Assembly (NCBI GenBank): GCA_035654155.1
Contig: DASRXM010000016.1
Location: forward strand, 10,924 to 74,923
Direction of reading: 5' to 3'
DNA length: 64,000 bases
Source of the DNA: Candidatus Babeliales bacterium
GTDB lineage: Bacteria; Vulcanimicrobiota; Vulcanimicrobiia; Vulcanimicrobiales; Vulcanimicrobiaceae
The stretch's first letter is position 1. Each line of letters begins with the position of its first letter. Below are positions 54,110 to 64,000 of the stretch, one piece after another. The notes beneath the pieces are model-generated. The model ran no database searches. It was not told where the DNA came from and saw nothing but the letters and a program-made list of their open reading frames with translations. A program made the position numbers and the translations under genes.

Positions 54110-54532
54110 TTAGCTTGGAGGTCGGGCAGCTTCTCCCCTTGCGAGAAACCGCCGAGCGATCAAGATTGCGGCGTAATCGTCGATCGGCCGGGGCGGCAGC
54201 TGAAGCCCAATGGGGACCAGCCGGCGCCAGCCACGGGGCGGATGGTCGGCAAAGTAGAGGATGCGAGCCGCCCGGCTGGTCTCGTACTCGTCAACTAGGT
54301 GGATAGGGAGGCGCAGGCCCTCCAGCGCAGCTCTGATGGGCCGCGAGTTCGTGCCTCGGCCTAGCGCTATCGCTCGGATCGCTCGCCGCGCCGCCAGCCA
54401 CTGCAAGCGCGGCCCGAGACAGTCGACCGGCTCGATTCCGGAGTCGATGACGGCGCCTGAGGCGTCGAGAAGCGCGTACCCGGCCTTCGTCCGGCCCGGG
54501 TCGACCCCGATGACCGCCTGACCCGCGGTCAC
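54110..54532 (-). CDS. YqgF/RuvX-like (RNase H-fold) putative nuclease
   Basis: 140 aa. VIGVDPGRTKAGYALLD N-terminal acidic motif and a later VDEYETS acidic motif. GTGA overlap with the upstream gene. Confidence 0.5.
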   Translation of the reverse strand: MTAGQAVIGVDPGRTKAGYALLDASGAVIDSGIEPVDCLGPRLQWLAARRAIRAIALGRGTNSRPIRAALEGLRLPIHLVDEYETSRAARILYFADHPPRGWRRLVPIGLQLPPRPIDDYAAILIARRFLARGEAARPPS

Positions 54533-55470
54533 GGGCGCTGGGTCAGGACGATAACTACGGGGATCGCGCCGACGTGAGGATAGTAATCCTCTGCTGCAAA
54601 CGCCGTGAGCAGATACGTTCCGGACTTGTTGATGCGTTGCTGCATCTGTTGCGCGTCGGGAATCAGCTGCAGCGGAGCGAAAGTTTCCGAAAGGAAGGGC
54701 GGCAAGTCGGCCCGCCGCGCCGCGATCGTCACGTAGTTTTGCAGCTGGCTGAGCGCGATATTGATGCTCGCCCCGCTCTTGCCGGGAATAACGAGTTCTG
54801 CGATGACTTCGTTCTTCCGAAAGTACAGTGTATCGGCGATCACCTGAATCGCAAAGTGAATTTGATCGTTCTCGAACAGGTTCTGATCGGACGTCACCGT
54901 CAGCATAACGTTGGTTTGAGAAAGCTTCGCGCGAGTCGTCAGGTCGTTGGCTAAGCCGCTGAGCTTTTTATCGGCGTCGGGCGGAATCGCGTACGCCCTC
55001 AGACCGAAGCGCGGATACGTGGCATTCACGTACTTGACCGCAAAAAAGTAATAATCCCGGATGGTCGCTAAACGCTGCGCGGGCGTCGCCGACTGCGCGA
55101 TGATGCGATAGAACGGAACCATCAGCGTATCGACCGGTAAAACCAGCCGTCCAGTATTAACTTTGGTTTCCAAGTCGCGCTGGCGCGCCTGCAGTTCGCC
55201 GATCTGCGCGTTGAGGGAGTTGAGCTTGAAAAATGCGGTCTTAACCTCCTGCGACGCCAGGATCGCGACGAGCGAAACGACCAGCGCGATCACCATGCCG
55301 GTCGCGATGGCGACGATCGTCGACGTATACCGCGGGCGAATTCCGAACAAGCTCAAGCGCCGCCGTCCGACCTGGTGGCCGACGCGATCCCCGACGTAGG
55401 CGACGGCGCCGGCAAGCGCCATTACCGCGGCGATGTTTCCGATCCCACGGATGAACTCGACGAAGTTCAT
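54529..55470 (-). CDS. Membrane-anchored coiled-coil protein, DUF3084-like
   Basis: Trimmed to ATG 55470 (ATGA overlap with the lptF/G stop). Two N-terminal TM helices flank a basic loop, then a coiled coil (LNAQIGELQARQRDLETK). The family assignment is from memory of cyanobacterial DUF3084 proteins. Confidence 0.45.
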   Translation of the reverse strand: MNFVEFIRGIGNIAAVMALAGAVAYVGDRVGHQVGRRRLSLFGIRPRYTSTIVAIATGMVIALVVSLVAILASQEVKTAFFKLNSLNAQIGELQARQRDLETKVNTGRLVLPVDTLMVPFYRIIAQSATPAQRLATIRDYYFFAVKYVNATYPRFGLRAYAIPPDADKKLSGLANDLTTRAKLSQTNVMLTVTSDQNLFENDQIHFAIQVIADTLYFRKNEVIAELVIPGKSGASINIALSQLQNYVTIAARRADLPPFLSETFAPLQLIPDAQQMQQRINKSGTYLLTAFAAEDYYPHVGAIPVVIVLTQRP

Positions 55471-56570
55471 ACCGAAGCCGCGCGCCTCAAGCGGCTCAAT
55501 CCGATTGCGGTGAAGAGCAGGTTCGGAACCCAGGCCCAAAAAGCCGCAAACGAGAGAAACGCCTCGCCCGCAAACGAGCAGATCGTCATGACCACGTAGT
55601 ACACGAAGACGATCGCCAGCGATAAACCGAAGCCTAAGCTGGTACTTCCACTCGAGCCGATCGAGCGCAAGCCAAACGGGATGGCGATCAGAATGAACAC
55701 GAAGCACGCGAACGGTCGAGCCAGCTTTTCCTGATATGTCGTCACGTACTTACGAACTTCGGGCTCGGTCAACTGGCCGGAATGCACGACGTCGGCGATC
55801 TCGGCGCGGCTCATATTCTCAGGATCGTCGTTGCTCATGCGCTTCATCAGGTCCGTTGGCCTCTCGCCGATTTCGACCTCCTGTTGCGGGACGTGCGGTT
55901 CCGCCAACGTCGAGCCATCGGGATTGAAGCGATAGACGCTCGAATTCTGCAGCGTCCACTTATCGGCCGTGAACTCGGCCCGATCCGCGAAGACGACCTG
56001 GCGCGGATCGTTGTGGTTGTCGTACTGAATCAACGTCACGTGCAGCAGTGCTCGCGAGTTCGGCTCGTAAGCGGTCGCTATCGTTACCTGTCGCCCCCCG
56101 CCCGGAAGCGGCGCCGAGACGGTCAGGTCGCGACTGAAGGCGCTGACGTGATTGATGACGTTGTTCTCGATCTCGGTAAGCTGATCGTTGGCATACGGAA
56201 CCAAGCCTTCTTGTAAATAGAGCGTCACGAACGACATCAGAATTCCAATCGCGAGCAGCGGCGCGACGATCCGCGCGAACGTGATGCCGGCAGCTTTGAG
56301 CGCCGTGAGCTCGCTTTCGCCCGAGAGCCTTTGAATCGCGAGCAGCGTGCCCAGGAGCAGCGCCATCGGAATCACCAACACGATGTCGGCCGGCAACGAC
56401 CACACGAAAATCGCCAGCGCCGCCCAAAGCGGAGCATGCTCGTTGCTGACGAGCTTGCCGATGTTGAGAATCTCGGTCGCCGCAAAGATCAGCATGAACG
56501 CCGATAATCCAAACACGAACGGACCCGTCAGCTCGGCGAGCATGTACCGGTCGAGAATCGTAAATCTCAT
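55467..56570 (-). CDS. LPS export ABC permease, LptF/LptG (YjgP/YjgQ) family
   Basis: Trimmed to ATG 56570 (MRFTILDRYMLAELTGPFVFG...). Six-TM pattern with a periplasmic beta-jellyroll insert. Confidence 0.85.
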   Translation of the reverse strand: MRFTILDRYMLAELTGPFVFGLSAFMLIFAATEILNIGKLVSNEHAPLWAALAIFVWSLPADIVLVIPMALLLGTLLAIQRLSGESELTALKAAGITFARIVAPLLAIGILMSFVTLYLQEGLVPYANDQLTEIENNVINHVSAFSRDLTVSAPLPGGGRQVTIATAYEPNSRALLHVTLIQYDNHNDPRQVVFADRAEFTADKWTLQNSSVYRFNPDGSTLAEPHVPQQEVEIGERPTDLMKRMSNDDPENMSRAEIADVVHSGQLTEPEVRKYVTTYQEKLARPFACFVFILIAIPFGLRSIGSSGSTSLGFGLSLAIVFVYYVVMTICSFAGEAFLSFAAFWAWVPNLLFTAIGLSRLRRAASV

Positions 56571-56594
56571 CTGTGTCGGCTCTTGCCGCCACCC

Positions 56595-56658
56595 TGACAT
56601 TCCGCCTCGGGGACGCTCCCTTCAGACATCCTTGTCTTCCGGTCGCTCGGCTCGATTT
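56595..56658. repeat. Copy A of a ~62-nt intergenic repeat (lptB-lptF/G spacer)
   Basis: The reverse complement of 56595-56658 aligns with 62398-62459. By hand alignment, 57 positions are identical, with 3 substitutions and two short indels. Contains the small hairpin ggga-gcg-tccc. Confidence 0.8.
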
Positions 56659-56754: not shown

Positions 56755-57498
56755 TTATAGTCTGAATCCTTCACCAAGATAGAATTGTCGAGCGATTGGA
56801 GAGTCAAGGACTTCTTGCGCGGTTCCGGATACTTCGATGCGGCCGTTGTTCAGGATGTAGGCGCGATCCACGATGGCGAGCGTTTCGCGCACTTGATGGT
56901 CGGTGATTAGGATGCCCAGACCGCGATCGCGCAATTGACGGATCATGGCTTGAATGTCGGCGACGGCGATCGGATCGATTCCCGTAAACGGCTCGTCGAG
57001 TAAGAGGAACGCCGGTTGAATTGCCAGCGCTCGGGCGATCTCGACGCGGCGCCGTTCGCCGCCCGAGAGACTGTCCCCGCGCGCGTCGACGAAGGCGCGC
57101 AGTCCGAACTCTTCGAGCAGCGCCGGCAGCCGCCGTTCGCGTTCGTCGTGCGAGATGCCGTTTTGCTCCCAAATGAGCCGAATGTTGTCGCCCACCGATA
57201 GCTTTCTGAATATCGAGTTCTCTTGCGACAAGTATCCGATGCCGTTGCGGGCGCGTGCATACATCGGTGCGCCGGTAAGATCGATCTCTCCGCTCGAGTT
57301 TGACAGCAGGACGGTGCCGCCGTCCGGTTTGACGAGTCCGACGACCATGTAGAACGTCGTCGTCTTGCCGGCTCCGTTAGGACCGAGCAGCCCGACGACC
57401 TCGCCCGTCTCCACCTGCGCGGTTACGCCGTTGACGACGGTTCGCTCGCCGTAGCGTTTGACGAGTCCGCGCATTTTGATCGCAGGTTTGTGATTCAT
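56755..57498 (-). CDS. lptB: LPS export ABC transporter ATPase LptB
   Basis: Walker [10 protein letters not shown], signature LSGGERRR, Walker B LLLDEPF.GIDP, H-loop ITDH. LptB-type C-terminal tail. Confidence 0.9.
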
Positions 57499-58052
57499 CG
57501 CATTCGCATGTGGGTGAGTGAAATATCGGAGTCAAAGCTCGAACCGGTCGCTCGAAAACCCTTGGGATCGGTAACCACGACGTTCCCATTCCCGTGCAGC
57601 ATGCCGGTGGCTCGCTGATAGACCAGCTGGGTGCACCGCAACGTCATTCCGGTCGACGTTCTGGCCGAAACGCCATCGAGCAGCGTAACGGTATCGGCAC
57701 TCTGATCTACCACCGCTTGCGGTGAGATTGCCGAAATCGTCGATCCGTTCCGGTCGCGAAACGTCACCCGCGCGTCTTGGAAGACCGCGCGCTCACCGCC
57801 CCGAGGGCCCTTGCTCTCGTACGAGCTCGCCAGCAAATCGTAATCGATGCGGTTGTGGACTTCCTGAATGAGATGAACCGGCCGGTTTGGCGTACCCTGC
57901 CCGCGGATCTCCAAGACGAGCGGAGTCGGCGCGCTGCGCGCCGCGCTGGAAGCGCGAGCGGCCGGAGCGGGCGCGTTCTTGGGCGGCTGAGGATTGCAGC
58001 CGGCCGCCGCGAAGCAGGCTGCCGCCGCGACGTACGAAAAACGCACCATCAT
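57495..58052 (-). CDS. LptC/LptA-like (OstA-fold) periplasmic LPS transport protein, lipoprotein form
   Basis: Lipobox FAAAGC. A ~130-aa beta-jellyroll-like region sits immediately upstream of lptB, with ATGA overlaps on both sides. Weak, context-driven call. Confidence 0.5.
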
Positions 58053-59251
58053 CCGGTCGTTGGGCTAGGCTCGCCGCCCTTGGCTGCCGCGAGCGCAAGC
58101 GCCAGCATCGGGAACCACAGCCCGAAAATCACCACGCTCACCGTGTCGATGAGCCCTTGCACGGCAACGCCGAACAGTCCCGCCGTTACGCTCAGCGCTA
58201 AGAGCGCGTCGGGCGCCGGCGCGGTCGCAACGCGGCGCCGCAGTTCGGTGGCGAAGCGCCACATCGTCCATAGGACCGCGCTTGCCCCGACGATCCCAAA
58301 CTCGGCGAGAAAGGTCAGGTAGAGGCTATGCGCGTGAAAGGCGCTGGGGTCGCCGTCGGGAGCGCGGACCAACGGGTAGACGCGAGAAAAATTGAACGGC
58401 CCGACGCCGGTGAGCGGGTAGCGATCGGCGATTTGCACCGCCGCGCGCCAGATCGACAATCGAGTGTAATCCTCGCTGGGATCGTGATGCGCGTTGAAGA
58501 GGACCAATACGGCCAATGCACCCGCGACCACGACCGCGATGGCGGCACCGCGCCGCGCGCGCACGGCGAAGAGAAATGCGAACGCCGCCACGCCGCCGAT
58601 CCAGCCTGCGCGCGAATAACTCAATCCGATTGCGGCCAGTCCGACCAGCAACCCGGCCCGGGCCAGGACCCGTAGCCCGGGCGACACTCCGGAGCGCGCC
58701 AGCGTATACGCGATCGGCAAGAAGACGATGAAGTAGCCCGCAAGCTCCCCGGGCAGAATGAACGCGCCCGTTGCTCGGCCGTGCTGCGCGACGTACTGCG
58801 CGGCGGGCACTCGCGCGATCGCCATTGCGATTGCGGCTGCACCCGCAAGCGTTCCCGAGGCCAAATAGGCAGCGAAGACCGAGAGTGCGGCATAACGGTC
58901 GGAATAGAAACGCATGATGGAGCAGTGCCATATGATTCCGAGACCGCCGATGCCGGTGAAGAGCAGGCCCGCGACCGGATTGAAGCCGAGGCAACCCGCA
59001 ACCAACCCCGCACCGAAGATCGCGAGCAGCGGCGCCAGCAATGGCTGCGAACCTTTGGCGGGGTAACGCGAAAGCACCAGCAGCGCATAGATCGCAAGCC
59101 ACGCGCAGACCGCGAGGACCGCCAACGTAAGCGGTTGCGGCAGCAACGAAATGCCGGGAAACTGCACGCCCGCAAGCGCGATGAAGCTCGGAAAGAGCGG
59201 CACGAGCGCAAAAACGAGGCCGAGTGCGGCCGGCATCGCGCGCCGCATCAT
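58049..59251 (-). CDS. O-antigen ligase/polymerase-family (Wzy_C) membrane protein
   Basis: Trimmed to ATG 59251 (MMRRAMPAALGLVFALV...). More than 10 TM segments, with SYSRAGWIGG in the large periplasmic loop region typical of Wzy_C proteins. Confidence 0.7.
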   Translation of the reverse strand: MMRRAMPAALGLVFALVPLFPSFIALAGVQFPGISLLPQPLTLAVLAVCAWLAIYALLVLSRYPAKGSQPLLAPLLAIFGAGLVAGCLGFNPVAGLLFTGIGGLGIIWHCSIMRFYSDRYAALSVFAAYLASGTLAGAAAIAMAIARVPAAQYVAQHGRATGAFILPGELAGYFIVFLPIAYTLARSGVSPGLRVLARAGLLVGLAAIGLSYSRAGWIGGVAAFAFLFAVRARRGAAIAVVVAGALAVLVLFNAHHDPSEDYTRLSIWRAAVQIADRYPLTGVGPFNFSRVYPLVRAPDGDPSAFHAHSLYLTFLAEFGIVGASAVLWTMWRFATELRRRVATAPAPDALLALSVTAGLFGVAVQGLIDTVSVVIFGLWFPMLALALAAAKGGEPSPTTG

Positions 59252-60405
59252 GCTCGGGCTAACAACGCGGCGATGCGCTGCGCGATTTGCCGCGCTCCGC
59301 CTGCGTCTCCCATCCTCGCGCGCCCGGCCTCTGCCATGCGTTCGCGCCGGTGCTGGTCGTCCAAGAGCGCCTCGATGCCGGCAACGGCGTCGTTCCGATT
59401 TCCGCCGAAAACCTCCAGCGCATCGCCCAGCAGCCCTCGCTGACGCCGGCGATACCAGTGCGCCGTTCGATCGTGCTCGCGTTCGAACGCAACGACCGGA
59501 ACGCCGGCGGCAGCGGCCGCTTCGTTCGCGGTTCCGGCTTGTCCGAGAACGAGCGCAACGCGAGCGAGCAACGGCCCAAGCGTTCCGCGCCAGGCGCGGA
59601 CGATGTCGCGCGAGTCGCTGCCCAGTACGAACGGCAAAAGATCGTCGTCTGCAACGCGTACGCGCCATCCGTCGCGCCGTGCATCCTCCGCGAATCGATC
59701 TGCATCGAGACCGGGCGCGATCGAGAGCACTCCGCCAAGACCCGGGCGCCGCACCGCTAAGTCGCGCGTCAGCCCGAGCAGAAACCGCGCGTCGTCATAC
59801 GCCTCCTGCCGGCTTCCCGGAAAGAGCGCCAACGCGGGCTCGAAGCCCTCGACCGCGCGGGCAGCATTGGGATCGTCGTCCGTTTTAAAAAGGTCCACGA
59901 TCGCGTTGGCAACCTCGGCCCGCAAACCGTGTCGGCGCAAAGCCGACGCGGTGGCTTCGTCGCGCACGAAGCAGGCCGATGCGCGCGCGAGCCAGCGCTC
60001 TTCGACCGGACCGTAAGGAGCGACATTTACGCTCTTCGCACTGCCGACGAAAACGGTCGGAGCACGCGCCAGGCGCGTCATCGCCAACGCATAGACGTCG
60101 CCGACGGCAACGGCCGCATCGTATCGTCCGCGAACGCTCCGCAAAAAACTCAGTTGCGCCCACGTTAGCGGAACTAGACCGGCGCGCACGTCGCGCACCA
60201 GGTTGCGCACGTTTCCCATCGCGACAAGGCCGCCGCTCGGCATAACGCGCCGCGGCCCGACGTCGCGCATCGCGCCGCCCGGTCCCTCTCCGACGAGCGC
60301 GAGGTGATCGATGCGCGCGTCCGGCGTAAGCACGCGAAGTTCCGAGGCGATCCGGTCGGCAATCGCCGCCTCTCCGTGGCCGTTGGTGACGAACAGAACG
60401 CTCAC
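59248..60405 (-). CDS. Lipid-A-disaccharide synthase-related protein (TIGR03492-like, GT-B fold)
   Basis: Trimmed to GTG 60405 (VSVLFVTNGHGEAAIADRIA...), a GTGA overlap with the upstream gene. The NGHGE N-terminus and C-terminal QAGTANE...G.PV block resemble the cyanobacterial LpxB-related family as I recall it. Confidence 0.65.
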   Translation of the reverse strand: MSVLFVTNGHGEAAIADRIASELRVLTPDARIDHLALVGEGPGGAMRDVGPRRVMPSGGLVAMGNVRNLVRDVRAGLVPLTWAQLSFLRSVRGRYDAAVAVGDVYALAMTRLARAPTVFVGSAKSVNVAPYGPVEERWLARASACFVRDEATASALRRHGLRAEVANAIVDLFKTDDDPNAARAVEGFEPALALFPGSRQEAYDDARFLLGLTRDLAVRRPGLGGVLSIAPGLDADRFAEDARRDGWRVRVADDDLLPFVLGSDSRDIVRAWRGTLGPLLARVALVLGQAGTANEAAAAAGVPVVAFEREHDRTAHWYRRRQRGLLGDALEVFGGNRNDAVAGIEALLDDQHRRERMAEAGRARMGDAGGARQIAQRIAALLARA

Positions 60406-61145
60406 GCTGCCGGCAGCAACGGGACGAGCGCGAAATCCGCAAGCGCAAAGCGCCGCTTCGCCGGATCGTATTCCAGCGCGCTGCTGGAGACGAACCGGCC
60501 GTACGGCCCGGCGTGAACGATCGGCACGCCGCCGACGTACTGCGGCTCGTGAAGCGTGTGGTGGCTGTGACCGCCCAGAATCAGGTCGATGCGTGGGATG
60601 CGCTCCGCGAGCTCGCGGTCGAGCGCTAGACCGATGTGCGACAGCACGACCACCATGTCGCCCTCCGCAACGTTTTGCACGTGCGGGGCGAGCGCCGTCC
60701 ACGGTTCCAAGAAGCGCCAGCCGAAAACGCTTTCCCAAGGGCTTTTAACCGGATACTGCATGATCAGGAGACCGAATACGTGTATTCGCGCGCCGGCCGC
60801 GCCATCGCCCCGCGCATCGAAGCGCAGCGAGGTGGCAAACGGGAGTGTTCTACCTTTTGTATCCAGCAAGTTGGTGCACACCAGCGGATGGCGCATCCGC
60901 GCCGCTCTCGCACGTAGCAAGCCGAACAGATAATGGAACTCGCGGTTTCCAATCGCTTGCGCGTCGTAACCGGCCGCATCCATCTCGCCGACGATCGGCT
61001 CGTTTCGGTAAAAGACGCTCTGGCTTCCACGCAGCGAATCGCCGCAGTCGAAGAGCAGACCGGGATTGAGCGCCCGCAGCTCGCGCAGCCGCGGCGCGAT
61101 ACCGCGGCGATCGTGCAGATCCGAGGTGTGATAGATTCGGATCAC
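60402..61145 (-). CDS. Calcineurin-like metallophosphoesterase (5'-nucleotidase/CpdB-type motifs)
   Basis: Trimmed to GTG 61145 (MIRIYHTSDLHD...), 2 nt after the lpxB stop. Motifs DLHD, CGDS, GNREF, LSHIG and GGHSHH. Confidence 0.8.
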   Translation of the reverse strand: MIRIYHTSDLHDRRGIAPRLRELRALNPGLLFDCGDSLRGSQSVFYRNEPIVGEMDAAGYDAQAIGNREFHYLFGLLRARAARMRHPLVCTNLLDTKGRTLPFATSLRFDARGDGAAGARIHVFGLLIMQYPVKSPWESVFGWRFLEPWTALAPHVQNVAEGDMVVVLSHIGLALDRELAERIPRIDLILGGHSHHTLHEPQYVGGVPIVHAGPYGRFVSSSALEYDPAKRRFALADFALVPLLPAA

Positions 61146-61147
61146 GA

Positions 61148-62263
61148 CTACGCAGTCTTCGAACGCGCAAGGTCCACGGCGTATCGCGCGCAGCGTTCGA
61201 GCGCGTCGGAAGGACCGAGCGCCTCGCGCATGCGGGTAAACTCCTCGCGCTGCGCGACCGGATCCATCATCAAGGCTTCGAGAGAATCGGCGAGGCGTTC
61301 GGGGGTCGCATCGTCTTGGAGCAGTTCCGGCACGACCTCGCGGCCGAGCACTAGATTCGGCAGCGTAATGAACCGGTGCCTTATCATACGATGACCGTAC
61401 CATATTAGAATGCGTGGGATCACGTAAACTGCGACGGCCGGCACGCCGGCAAGAGCCGTCTCGAGCACGGCGGTACCTGAAGCGACCCACGCGCCGTCGG
61501 CCGATTCCAGCGCGGACGCAACCCCCGCAACGATCGCAACGTCGCCGGCCCCTGCACGATTCAAGTACCGCCGAATCGTGCGATGCGCGCGCTCGTCGGC
61601 GGCGCCGACGACTGCGCGCAAGCGAGGCCGCCGTTGCCGCAGCGCGCGATAAGCAGCCAAAAGAACGGGGAGATGGCGGCGCAGTTCGCCCGAGCGGCTT
61701 CCCGGCAGCATCGCGACCAGGCCGCCGTCCGGCGGCGGCGCCGGGTTGCGCGCGCGCATTTGGTATCGGCTCGCGAGCGGATGCCCGAAATACTCGATTC
61801 GGCATCCCAGGCTACGATAGAATTCGTACTGGTGCGCAAACGCCGTGACCGGAAAAGCGACCGCGCTGACGTTGCGCGCCTTCTCCGGGTCGTCCAGCCA
61901 CGTCCCGGGAGGAAAAAGATCCATGATCGGCCCGGCGTATCCAAAGCGCCGAACCGTATTGGCTAAGCGCAGATTGAAGACGCCGAAATCGACCAGCACG
62001 ACCAAATCCGGTTTCGACCCTGCGATATGAAACGCCGTGCGCAGCATCGCGTCGAGCAGCTTCGGAATTCTCGGGATCGCTGCCAACGGACCCATGCTCG
62101 CCCATCCCCGATGATTCCGCCAGAGGCCAAACCCGGCGGCCCGCATACGCTCGCTCCCGATCCCTTCAAACTGCGCTTCCGGATCCAATTTCTTAATAGC
62201 TTGCGCCAGCAAGATCGCCATCGCCTCGCCACTCGGCTCGCCCGTCGAAAAGAAATATCTCAC
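61148..62263 (-). CDS. lpxB: Lipid-A-disaccharide synthase LpxB
   Basis: GTG start. FFSTGEPSGE N-terminus, DFP.FNLRLA-like block, and a C-terminal GTA.LE.AL.G.P.VV.Y block. Confidence 0.9.
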   Translation of the reverse strand: MRYFFSTGEPSGEAMAILLAQAIKKLDPEAQFEGIGSERMRAAGFGLWRNHRGWASMGPLAAIPRIPKLLDAMLRTAFHIAGSKPDLVVLVDFGVFNLRLANTVRRFGYAGPIMDLFPPGTWLDDPEKARNVSAVAFPVTAFAHQYEFYRSLGCRIEYFGHPLASRYQMRARNPAPPPDGGLVAMLPGSRSGELRRHLPVLLAAYRALRQRRPRLRAVVGAADERAHRTIRRYLNRAGAGDVAIVAGVASALESADGAWVASGTAVLETALAGVPAVAVYVIPRILIWYGHRMIRHRFITLPNLVLGREVVPELLQDDATPERLADSLEALMMDPVAQREEFTRMREALGPSDALERCARYAVDLARSKTA

Positions 62264-62397
62264 TCAGGAGCCTGTATAGTTAGTCCCTCGTATTCGGTGC
62301 CGATTTTTGTCCGAAGACGAGGCGCGATGAGGGAACGAAGCCGTAAACTTCGTGACCGAAGAGCAACGAAGTATTCGGGCAAAGCGGCCCGAAGACG

Positions 62398-62459
62398 AAA
62401 TCGAGCCGAGCGACCGGAGGACAGGACGTCTCGGGGAGCGTCCCCGTGGCGGAATGTCA
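62398..62459. repeat. Copy B of the ~62-nt intergenic repeat (lpxA-lpxB spacer), inverted relative to copy A
   Basis: aaatcgagccgagcgaccggaggacaggacgtctcggggagcgtccccgtggcggaatgtca. Contains the hairpin cgggga-gcg-tccccg. Confidence 0.8.
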
Positions 62460-62483
62460 CCCCGCACGCGCGAGCAAGCTCCC

Positions 62484-63251
62484 TTACTTCAGCACTCCTC
62501 GCTGTGAAGGCGCTTCGAGAAAGGCGACGATCTCTAAGCCTGGGCCGGTGGCAGCCTGCTCCTTCATCGCCTCGATCGCCTGCGAAACGTTGAGCTTCGG
62601 ATCGTAGAGCAGCTTGTAGCAGCGCTTGATCTCGTTGCGCTCGTCGGCCGAGAAGCCCGCGCGTCGCAAGCCGACGCTGTTGAGACCGTAAGGCTGGCAC
62701 GGGTTACCCTCGACTAGGAAGAACGGCGGAACGTCTTTCGTGCATTTGCTCATGCCTCCGATCATCGCGTGGCGACCGATCCGAGTGAATTGATGAACGC
62801 CGGTTTGTCCGCCGATGGTAACGTAATCGCCGACATGCACGTGTCCGGCGAGCTGTGCCAGATTGCTCATCGTCACGCCGTTACCGAGCGCGCAATTGTG
62901 AGCGATGTGGACGTATGCAAGCAACAGGCAATCGTCGCCGACCGAGGTGACCTCGTCGTAGCCGGTCGCTCGTTGGATGCTGACGTACTCGCGAAGGATC
63001 GTGCGGTTGCCGACGCGCGTGAAGGCCCGCTCGCCGCCGTACTTGCGGTCCTGCGACGCCGCACCGATGGTCGAGAACGGATAGATCAAGCAATCTTCTC
63101 CGATCTCGGTCCAGCCGTTGACGACGACGTGCGCTTGAAGCGTCGTTCTCGCACCGATCGAAACGTGCTCCCCGACGATGCAATAGGGCCCAATCTCTGC
63201 GTTCTTACCGATCTCTGCGCTCGGGTGAACGATGGCGGTCGGATGGAGCAC
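62484..63251 (-). CDS. lpxA: UDP-N-acetylglucosamine acyltransferase LpxA
   Basis: 255 aa. Left-handed beta-helix hexapeptide repeats, then the LpxA C-terminal helical domain (G.N..GLRR.GFS......I...Y..LY). Confidence 0.95.
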   Translation of the reverse strand: MLHPTAIVHPSAEIGKNAEIGPYCIVGEHVSIGARTTLQAHVVVNGWTEIGEDCLIYPFSTIGAASQDRKYGGERAFTRVGNRTILREYVSIQRATGYDEVTSVGDDCLLLAYVHIAHNCALGNGVTMSNLAQLAGHVHVGDYVTIGGQTGVHQFTRIGRHAMIGGMSKCTKDVPPFFLVEGNPCQPYGLNSVGLRRAGFSADERNEIKRCYKLLYDPKLNVSQAIEAMKEQAATGPGLEIVAFLEAPSQRGVLK

Positions 63252-63265
63252 GAGCGTTGGGCTCC

Positions 63266-63739
63266 CTAAACGTGAAGGACGCTTGAGTCGGCGCCGAACA
63301 TCCGCGGATCGGAGACGATCGAGAACATGATCTCGGCCGAGCAGGCGAACTGCCCGTCAACGGTCGCTTCGGCGCTGACCCATCCGATGTTGCGCTTGTG
63401 GCGCAGCATAACCACTTCCATGTCGAGGCGATCGCCGGGAATGACCGGCCGCCGGAACTTCGCCTTGTCGATCCCGGCCAGATAGGGCGTCTTGCGCGAA
63501 AACTCGCCCGGCTCGAGAATCATCGCGCCGCCCAGCTGCGCCAGCGCTTCGATCATGTAGACTCCCGGCAGCACGGGATTGTCCGGAAAATGCCCGGCAA
63601 AGATCTGCTCGTTGTACGTGATGTTCTTGTAGCCGCGCACCCGCACCATCGGCTCGAACTCGAGGATGCGATCGACCAGCAGCATCGGGTAGCGGTGCGG
63701 CAAAACCTCAAAAATCTTGCGAATGTCTAATTCCGTCAC
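63266..63739 (-). CDS. fabZ: 3-hydroxyacyl-ACP dehydratase FabZ
   Basis: Trimmed to GTG 63739, with AAGGAG upstream. LPHRYPMLLVDRI, FAGHFP..PVLPGV...EALAQ. Confidence 0.95.
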   Translation of the reverse strand: MTELDIRKIFEVLPHRYPMLLVDRILEFEPMVRVRGYKNITYNEQIFAGHFPDNPVLPGVYMIEALAQLGGAMILEPGEFSRKTPYLAGIDKAKFRRPVIPGDRLDMEVVMLRHKRNIGWVSAEATVDGQFACSAEIMFSIVSDPRMFGADSSVLHV

Positions 63740-63740
63740 G

Positions 63741-64000
63741 TCATCTCCTTGCGGATGGTATGCTCGGCCGCGAACGCAGCGCACGAGCCAGCGACGCGTG
63801 CAGCTCGTGTCCGCTCTTGAAAGCCACGACCTCGAAGCACGGCCAAGCACCGAGCAGCGCGAGGTCGCCGATCAGGTCGAGCACTTTGTGCCGGACGGCT
63901 TCATCCGGCCAACGCAGCGGCTGCATCGGTCCGTCGGGCGTGAAGATGAGCGCATTCTCCAAACTGCCGCCGCGGCCCAAGCCGCGCGCCCAGAGAGCTT
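63741..64000 (-). CDS. lpxC: UDP-3-O-acyl-GlcNAc deacetylase LpxC, C-terminal part (5' end beyond the window)
   Basis: The frame is open to the window edge. GGSLENA, DE.VRHKVLDLIGDLALLG and FKSGHELH are LpxC C-terminal signatures. Confidence 0.88.
   Translation of the reverse strand, partial: ALWARGLGRGGSLENALIFTPDGPMQPLRWPDEAVRHKVLDLIGDLALLGAWPCFEVVAFKSGHELHASLARALRSRPSIPSARR

Follow-up and report, generated by a model that had tools for sequence, protein, structure and literature searches.

A cytoplasmic UshA-type metallophosphoesterase encoded in the lipid A gene cluster of Eremiobacterota is a candidate for the missing UDP-2,3-diacylglucosamine pyrophosphatase

The Raetz pathway of lipid A synthesis is among the best-studied bacterial routes, and its fourth step is the one known to have arisen repeatedly (LpxH, LpxI, LpxG). 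Whole phyla nevertheless carry lpxA, lpxC, lpxD and lpxB but no fourth-step enzyme. Here we describe a stretch of 64,000 nucleotides (nt) of contig DASRXM010000016.1 (the window, to which positions refer unless otherwise stated), taken from a 1.93-Mb metagenome-assembled genome (MAG) of the Candidatus Cybelea group of Eremiobacterota (Vulcanimicrobiota). It contains a lipid A and lipopolysaccharide (LPS) gene cluster, all on the minus strand, in which lpxB is followed by the gene of a predicted cytoplasmic metallophosphoesterase (MPE) of 247 amino acids (aa; 60402..61145). From sequence comparisons we propose, with moderate confidence, that MPE is the non-orthologous UDP-2,3-diacylglucosamine pyrophosphatase of Eremiobacterota and Armatimonadota and the best candidate for the LpxH/LpxI/LpxG step in these phyla.

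UshA cleaves the pyrophosphate of UDP-sugars to give UMP and a sugar-1-phosphate, and LpxH cuts the same bond in UDP-2,3-diacylglucosamine. Like LpxH, MPE is a binuclear metallophosphoesterase of the calcineurin-like group, cytoplasmic, about 240 aa long and encoded among lipid A genes, and both have a rare replacement of His by Arg in the GNH(D/E) motif (GNRD in LpxH, PDB 5B49 family; GNRE in MPE); the reaction that we propose for it is the same. It differs from LpxH in falling outside the models TIGR01854 (cut-off 190 bits) and NF003743 (134 bits), neither of which is among its NCBIfam matches at E<=0.01, in retrieving no LpxH in a PDB profile search at E<=1, and in a fold that is nearest to the N-domains of UshA and CD73. 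The UshA/5'-nucleotidase group (PDB 1USH; CD73) provides its closest relatives by sequence and by structure, and MPE has both their N-terminal binuclear domain and their motif set. However, MPE is half their size and ends at residue 247 without the C-terminal substrate-binding domain (about 500–550 aa in total in that family), it has no signal peptide and should be cytoplasmic, whereas UshA types are periplasmic or extracellular, and it has the catalytic His of GNHE replaced by Arg and forms its own clade.

LpxG (Ct461) of Chlamydia, a metallophosphoesterase that stands in for LpxH in a lineage with neither LpxH nor LpxI, was reportedly identified by a screen for complementation of E. coli lpxH, and by analogy it offers a precedent for non-orthologous displacement within the metallophosphoesterase superfamily. 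LpxI acts at the same pathway step, and in one syntenic lpx/lpt supercluster without MPE it appears to fill the corresponding role (see below). LpxH and LpxG are metallophosphoesterases; LpxI belongs to DUF1009 (PF17930 and PF06230), with an unrelated fold and mechanism (PMC4807358). LpxG, with about 330 aa (about 37 kDa), an N-terminal transmembrane helix and the motifs GDXXDR and GNHD (PMC4807358), also differs from MPE, which has 247 aa (27 kDa), no transmembrane segment and the motifs GDSLRG and GNRE. By these comparisons MPE is a member of none of the LpxH, LpxI and LpxG families, and a literature search retrieved no paper that describes a fourth class of hydrolase or closes the gap.

The initial annotation of the locus had read the operon as lpxC-fabZ-lpxA-lpxB-MPE followed by an LpxB-related gene, an order that open reading frames (ORFs) and hidden Markov model scans confirmed. 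The lpxB gene (61148..62263) encodes a lipid-A-disaccharide synthase of 371 aa (PF02684, 3e-53; TIGR00215, 1e-44), and between its TAG stop codon (61150-61148) and the GTG start of MPE at 61145 there are only 2 nt. The TGA of MPE (60404-60402) in turn shares bases with the GTG (60405-60403) of an ORF of 385 aa (59248..60405), encoding a protein of the 'lipid-A-disaccharide synthase-related' type with a glycosyltransferase-B (GT-B) fold (TIGR03492, 2.8e-61). The 2-nt gap and the GTGA overlap that had been claimed were thus both found, at 61148/61145 and 60405-60402.

Among Pfam families MPE matches PF00149 only (3e-6), and its best NCBIfam matches, to SoxB (1e-22), UshA-like and CpdB-type families, cover the N-terminal metallophosphatase part of these models alone. 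All the metal motifs attributed to it are present (DLHD, residues 9-12; GD, 35-36; GNRE, 66-69; SH, 169-170; GGHSHH, 191-196), with D9, H11, D36, N67, H170, H193 and H195 invariant in the family alignment. An AlphaFold2 model (pLDDT 96, pTM 0.93) found its best PDB matches by Foldseek in the N-domains of E. coli UshA, human CD73 and B. subtilis YunD (TMq 0.77-0.81); TMt is low (about 0.4) because these targets, of about 520 aa, are twice as long. PDB sequences searched by profile returned 5'-nucleotidases at 1e-27 to 1e-30, so that the proposed 5'-nucleotidase/CpdB type stood up in NCBIfam, profile and structural comparisons alike. At its N-terminus MPE begins straight away with beta-strand 1 and DxH, and its C-terminus falls where 5'-nucleotidases begin their substrate-binding C-domain. 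Since the protein opens directly on the beta1-DxH motif it has no signal peptide, and family members have 230-260 aa. By sequence and model, MPE is accordingly a predicted cytoplasmic, single-domain derivative of the catalytic N-domain of UshA-type UDP-sugar hydrolases/5'-nucleotidases. Structural kinship with LpxH was looked for and did not emerge, no LpxH structure being among the top 50 Foldseek matches.

The arginine of the GNRE motif, Arg68 (CGC codon, 60944-60942), is invariant in an alignment of 31 sequences from the phylum, and in the PDB profile search GNRE aligns to the GNHE of Thermus and snake-venom 5'-nucleotidases. All 120 close matches of MPE read GNR[ED], and the residue after GN is Arg in 112 of 113 profile matches. 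It is also Arg in 79 of 97 short representatives, the remainder being mostly fragments without the motif, and His in 38 of 44 long two-domain relatives. In a tree of 114 representatives, the short GNR proteins (67/67) were grouped in one clade (support 0.93) that included none of the 37 long GNH proteins. Among metallophosphoesterases, the change from His to Arg in GNH(D/E) has been described as occurring 'only in LpxH', in all species, and Arg80 of LpxH is bound to the lipid X phosphate, the counterpart of the substrate's beta-phosphate, by a bidentate salt bridge (Okada et al., PMC5016852). The MPE lineage, unrelated to LpxH yet found within lipid A operons, has made the same change. We consider the Arg of GNRE to be convergent evidence, suggestive but not proof, for an LpxH-like kind of substrate.

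The initial annotation had also noted that no homologue of LpxH, LpxI or LpxG was recognisable in the window, and had set a genuine copy elsewhere in the genome as a refuting observation. No match to LpxH (TIGR01854) or LpxI (PF06230) was detected in the window's own genome even at E<=10. Because this MAG is only 77.5% complete, an absence there proves little, and it is phylum-wide searches that carry weight. We therefore consider 151 Eremiobacterota genomes from 71 genera, 120 of them at least 90% complete, searched at E<=1e-3. Neither LpxH (TIGR01854, 0/151) nor LpxI (LpxI_C, PF06230, 0/151) was found in any of them. The absence thus extends to the phylum for these two enzymes; for LpxG it holds to the extent of the metallophosphoesterase inventory of one complete genome of the same genus.

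That single-contig genome encodes six PF00149 proteins, one of which is MPE, and none of the six matches the LpxH model. The remaining five, two of YfcE type, one of TIGR00282/YmdB type, one CpdA-like with a twin-arginine (Tat) signal and one of 467 aa, were examined for the LpxH step and set aside, the YfcE-type pair as generic; the CpdA-like and 467-aa proteins are probably not cytoplasmic, given the Tat signal of the former and the signal peptide and C-terminal anchor of the latter. The TIGR00282-type, CpdA-like and 467-aa proteins were not found by tblastn in the incomplete genome of the window. By this inventory, there appears to be no other cytoplasmic candidate for the LpxH step in the complete genome. 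The 467-aa metallophosphoesterase (G097:C1:223382-224782) has a GNND motif, a cleavable-looking signal peptide and only a weak SpdA-like match.

Later steps of the canonical pathway are also poorly represented in the phylum. LpxK (PF02606) gave three marginal matches in the 151 genomes, and the N-domain of the 3-deoxy-D-manno-octulosonate (Kdo) transferase WaaA (PF04413) one convincing match, in a MAG with 9% contamination. The genes lpxD, lpxC, lpxA and lpxB are present with lpt genes in the cluster of the source genome and its relatives. Eremiobacterota therefore appear to possess a 'four-enzyme' lipid A gene set (lpxA, lpxC, lpxD, lpxB), and their lipid A is probably devoid of the 4'-phosphate and of Kdo. 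A 'four-enzyme' set in the same lpxD-lpxC-fabZ-lpxA-lpxB cluster is known from Cyanobacteria and Dictyoglomi, for which the missing fourth step was flagged in 2010, and the LPS of such Cyanobacteria is reported to be without phosphate and Kdo (Opiyo et al., PMC3087551). In Vulcanimicrobium alpinus, a cultured member of the phylum, the outer membrane is labelled as LPS-covered and 3-hydroxy fatty acids make up 27% (PMC9758169). Lipid A synthesis thus evidently takes place, and the absent step leaves a true gap.

MPE was found in 150 of the 151 phylum genomes and in all 71 genera. Of the 31 related loci compared, 11 belong to the same genus, and the other 20 represent further families, orders and classes within the phylum. 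In 30 of them the TIGR03492-like gene follows directly on MPE in the same direction, and in 29 lpxB lies upstream of MPE on the same strand within the lpx cluster, at 0-60 nt across the class Eremiobacteria and at 0.4-3.8 kb in distant families. Linkage to lipid A genes in other genomes, which had been set beforehand as a test of the proposed function, therefore extends over the phylum, and in Armatimonadota MPE stands in a different LPS context (see below). The pairing of MPE with TIGR03492 recurs throughout the phylum and is more than chance. Conservation is moreover higher for MPE than for LpxB at 26 of 29 loci, which fits an indispensable function.

The cluster is longer in distant families and in one Armatimonadetes-labelled MAG (L022:2575-7881; L142:4207-9168; L138:4542-8143). 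A gnnA-like gene for a UDP-GlcNAc 3-dehydrogenase is inserted between fabZ and lpxA, and a second LpxB-like paralogue and an ICMT/LmtA-like methyltransferase are encoded between lpxB and MPE, so that the extended block seems, from the gene assignments, to be entirely concerned with lipid A. The gnnA-like and ICMT/LmtA-like genes hint at a lipid A based on 2,3-diamino-2,3-dideoxyglucose (GlcN3N), whose 1-phosphate may be methylated as in Leptospira.

Two proteins of 650 and 653 aa, 55.5% identical (L138:8144-10096 and L141:5986-7947), are fusions of MPE to TIGR03492, with GNRE at residue 68, a short linker and the full TIGR03492 domain. Their contigs, from two related samples, are 64-70% identical in DNA with a GC content of 39-40%, and both fusions are embedded in the operon lpxC-fabZ-gnnA-lpxA-lpxB-methyltransferase-[fusion]-lptC. 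The finding of two diverged fusions in like operons indicates that the fusion is natural and conserved, and MPE and the TIGR03492-like protein evidently act close together. Four apparent fusions of LpxB to MPE were rejected as artefacts: P0224 comes from a contig with many fragmented genes, and P0130, P0147 and P0154 consist of partial LpxB C-termini joined to MPE where the genes are 0-20 nt apart.

The initial annotation had called the 385-aa partner TIGR03492-like. The match covers nearly the full length of the model (profile positions 1-394 of 396), but its 207.4 bits just miss the cut-off of 219.2 bits; the fusion protein P0145, a relative in the same gene position, reaches 305 bits and passes it. 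Like LpxB (GT19), the protein has GT-B architecture, a similar length and a PGSR-type motif, and LPS clusters with a member of the family occur in Eremiobacterota, in genomes labelled Armatimonadota, in Halanaerobiales and in other genomes labelled Firmicutes. It differs from LpxB in that it does not match the LpxB Pfam model PF02684, or any other Pfam model at E<=0.01, and a bona fide LpxB is encoded beside it. Its AlphaFold2 model (pLDDT 91) has the GT-B fold, with UDP-GlcNAc 2-epimerases and GT4 transferases as the nearest structures, and its best PDB sequence match, a marginal one at PGSR, is E. coli LpxB (5W8S, E=0.0025). The strongly conserved motifs SNGxGED, PGSR, GQAGTANEQ and WYRxRQKGLLG suggest an active UDP-sugar-binding enzyme. 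We know of no characterised member of the TIGR03492 family, and a literature search retrieved no paper on its function.

When genome contigs were searched with a TIGR03492 alignment, the best 80 loci all came from Eremiobacterota. Of three control genomes, Synechococcus elongatus and Deinococcus radiodurans also match the TIGR03492 model above its cut-off, and Bacteroides thetaiotaomicron does not. D. radiodurans is not known to make lipid A, so the acceptor of the family need not be a lipid A precursor, and the occurrence of TIGR03492 without MPE means that it is not merely an MPE subunit. We consider it, on sequence and model, a probable separate, LPS-linked partner of MPE of the GT-B glycosyltransferase type. 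As a mere guess, it might glycosylate the lipid A disaccharide where LpxK and WaaA are lacking.

Outside Eremiobacterota, a profile built from distant members of the MPE family retrieved thousands of GNR proteins of 235-260 aa, those that carry names being labelled Armatimonadota. A short GNR MPE is encoded in about 115 of 151 genomes of that phylum, in which LpxI (0/151) and LpxH matches above the family cut-off (0/151) are absent. Four contigs from the distant part of the family, two of them labelled Armatimonadota, have MPE downstream of kdsD, with kdsC between the two genes in three; in three of the four, MPE is followed by an ArnT-like membrane glycosyltransferase and a GT2 gene with overlapping stop and start codons. 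This kdsD-kdsC-MPE-ArnT-like-GT2 operon appears to be a second, different LPS neighbourhood of MPE. Eremiobacterota seem to lack Kdo-lipid A, and the element common to both contexts is the lipid A backbone, of which the LpxH step is the only reaction without an assigned enzyme. Another distant short-form homologue lies after secG and near lgt, outside any LPS context, and not every short GNR protein need therefore have a lipid A role.

Further TIGR03492 proteins carry labels of Halanaerobiales, Limnochordia and other Firmicutes MAGs. A supercluster in one Firmicutes-labelled MAG reads lpxC-fabZ-lpxA-lpxI-lpxB-(LpxB-like)-msbA-TIGR03492-GT2-...-lptB-lptF/G-DUF3084-porin-YqgF; LpxI is present and there is no MPE in 20.8 kb. 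MPE is likewise missing from a Halanaerobiales contig (lpxB-msbA-TIGR03492-Wzy_C) and from a Bacillota contig (Wzy_C-(LpxB-like)-msbA-TIGR03492), and Halanaerobiales are reported to be LpxI users (PMC5007114). An otherwise conserved cluster lacks MPE where LpxI is present and has MPE where LpxI is absent, which goes in the direction that non-orthologous displacement would predict, in a small sample with one clear case.

We thus favour MPE for the fourth step because it is nearly universal in the phylum and lies inside the lpx cluster, LpxH and LpxI are lacking, it has UshA-type chemistry and the GNRE motif, and LpxI takes its place in a syntenic cluster. The plausibility of a non-orthologous UDP-2,3-diacylglucosamine hydrolase, advanced in the initial annotation, has gained from synteny, phyletic pattern, Arg68, displacement and fusion, from which we infer substrate, products and the role of the arginine as follows. 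MPE would hydrolyse UDP-2,3-diacylglucosamine at its pyrophosphate, yielding UMP and lipid X, and LpxB, encoded immediately upstream, would condense lipid X with a second UDP-2,3-diacylglucosamine; in relatives with a gnnA-like gene the substrate of MPE would be the GlcN3N analogue. Two metals, held by D9, H11, D36, N67, H170, H193 and H195, would activate a water molecule for attack on the alpha-phosphate. Arg68, in place of the usual catalytic His, would bind the beta-phosphate, which becomes the 1-phosphate of lipid X, as in LpxH. With the nucleotide-binding C-domain and the signal peptide both lost, an open active site would be left on the cytoplasmic side of the membrane. The TIGR03492-like GT-B protein would be a separate partner in the LPS pathway beside MPE, fused to it in some lineages.

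Several observations weigh against this proposal. The fold of MPE is UshA-like and not LpxH-like, and no LpxH-type helical lipid-binding cap is evident from the matches of the model, among the top 50 in Foldseek. MPE is tied more closely to TIGR03492 (adjacent and twice fused) than to lpxB (0.4-3.8 kb away in distant families), so that the two might work together at some other step. As LpxK and WaaA are also lacking, the lipid A pathway of the phylum is non-canonical and other phosphoester-cleaving steps are conceivable. The exclusion of LpxG is indirect, drawn from an inventory of the six PF00149 proteins of the complete same-genus genome, none of them LpxG-like, without an LpxG model. About 25 Armatimonadota genomes have no MPE. 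Finally, 10 of the 151 Armatimonadota genomes, all ten with MPE, encode an LpxH-related protein that covers TIGR01854/NF003743 over the full length, at 35-66 bits only. The four sequences that we read (genomes G253, G282, G176 and G271; loci L134-L137) have GNHD and not GNRD. With scores of 35-55 bits against the cut-off of 190 and this motif, we rejected the matches in the ten genomes as bona fide LpxH, although they could still be active hydrolases.

The proposal can be extended in a form that we find doubtful as a whole. The short GNR MPE would be a fourth, independently evolved lipid X-forming class in outer-membrane Terrabacteria that lack LpxH, LpxI and LpxG, working as a two-part system with TIGR03492, to which it is sometimes fused. 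In such a system the TIGR03492 partner, as a UDP-sugar/lipid-binding GT-B protein, would present the substrate in place of the lost C-domain and channel lipid X to LpxB. The same module might explain the supply of the LpxB acceptor in 'four-enzyme' Cyanobacteria, given the TIGR03492 match in Synechococcus elongatus.

The constant adjacency of MPE to TIGR03492, with fusions in two diverged lineages, could also mean that MPE works with the TIGR03492-like protein after LpxB, cleaving a phosphate or pyrophosphate on the disaccharide. It might remove the 1-phosphate, towards a phosphate-free lipid A of cyanobacterial type, or cleave a UDP-linked disaccharide if the acceptor of LpxB were UDP-diacylglucosamine. 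The 5'-nucleotidase relatives of MPE are phosphomonoesterases as well, but the lipid A phosphatases known so far are PAP2 enzymes of the periplasm. The lack of LpxK and WaaA also agrees with this alternative, as in 'four-enzyme' Cyanobacteria, with LPS reported to be free of phosphate and Kdo (PMC3087551). However, the formation of lipid X would be left unexplained unless the acceptor of LpxB is altered, and the replacement of the general-acid His by Arg matches an LpxH-type pyrophosphatase. Furthermore, the ICMT/LmtA-like methyltransferase encoded directly before MPE in distant relatives hints that the 1-phosphate is kept, perhaps methylated, and TIGR03492 occurs without MPE where LpxI is present. 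We regard action after LpxB as unlikely.

The closest characterised relatives of MPE act on soluble UDP-sugars and nucleotides, MPE is fused or coupled to a UDP-sugar-binding GT-B protein, and in Armatimonadota its gene stands beside ArnT-like and GT2 genes and not beside lpxB. These facts would suit a module for some other LPS glycosylation, with MPE acting on a soluble UDP-sugar or on the UDP or UMP by-product, and with the LpxH step carried out by another, unrecognised enzyme. A cytoplasmic UDP-sugar hydrolase would however be wasteful, and known GT-B enzymes need none; the C-domain behind the nucleotide specificity of UshA is missing from MPE. A search of the cluster and of the metallophosphoesterases of the complete same-genus genome also yielded no other candidate for the LpxH step, and the exchange of MPE for LpxI in a syntenic cluster points to that step. 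We therefore judge such a module quite improbable. A housekeeping nucleotide or cyclic-nucleotide phosphodiesterase in an incidental operon position is very improbable: the source annotations (2',3'-cyclic-nucleotide 2'-phosphodiesterase or 5'-nucleotidase) and the distant short-form homologues outside LPS contexts, such as secG-MPE next to lgt, speak for it, but lpx/lpt synteny across the whole phylum with translational coupling, a second LPS context in Armatimonadota, fusion to an LPS-cluster protein and loss of the canonical catalytic His and of the nucleotide-binding domain speak against it.

The remainder of the cluster in the window follows the order (lpxD)-lpxC-fabZ-lpxA-lpxB-MPE-TIGR03492-like-Wzy_C-like-lptC-lptB-lptFG. 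The 3' end of lpxC occupies 63741..64000 and the gene runs past the window; in the same contig it is preceded by lpxD. There we find an LpxC-like ORF of 275 aa (contig coordinates 74667-75491) and then an LpxD-like ORF of 338 aa (contig coordinates 75501-76514), both named by their position and by similarity to related clusters. The fabZ gene (63266..63739), kept in all related clusters, has a GTG start at 63739 behind an AAGGAG Shine-Dalgarno sequence. It is followed by lpxA (62484..63251; 255 aa; NF003657, 1.4e-102, 342 bits, above the cut-off). The interval between lpxA and lpxB (62264-62483) is 220 nt long and free of ORFs in an otherwise tightly packed operon; it measures about 20-190 nt in same-genus relatives.

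Downstream of MPE, the TGA of the TIGR03492-like gene shares bases, in an ATGA overlap, with the ATG at 59251 of a gene for a Wzy_C/O-antigen-ligase-like membrane protein (58049..59251; PF04932, 1.9e-19; weak IctB-family match). A Wzy_C gene is also found directly after TIGR03492 in the Halanaerobiales contig (L140:11196-12329) and two genes upstream in the cluster of the Bacillota contig (L144:5691-6905), a neighbourhood which suggests that the pair acts in core or O-antigen attachment. There follow an lptC-like gene (57495-58052; TIGR04409, weak), lptB (56755-57498; TIGR04406, 1.6e-99) and a single lptF/G gene (55467-56600; TIGR04408/TIGR04407). Here as in related loci each cluster has one gene for an LptF/G-family permease, where E. 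coli has separate lptF and lptG. After lptF/G a DUF3084 protein and a YqgF-like protein are encoded (54110-55470), a tail of the LPS export operon that is kept in related clusters, including one labelled Firmicutes.

Eremiobacterota and Armatimonadota are abundant phyla of soils and of the cryosphere. If our proposal is true, MPE would represent a fourth class of enzyme for a known reaction and would complete the reconstruction of the lipid A pathway in both phyla. It would also provide a second, convergent case of the replacement of His by Arg for binding the sugar-1-phosphate leaving group, and a marker for the annotation of LPS capacity in metagenomes.

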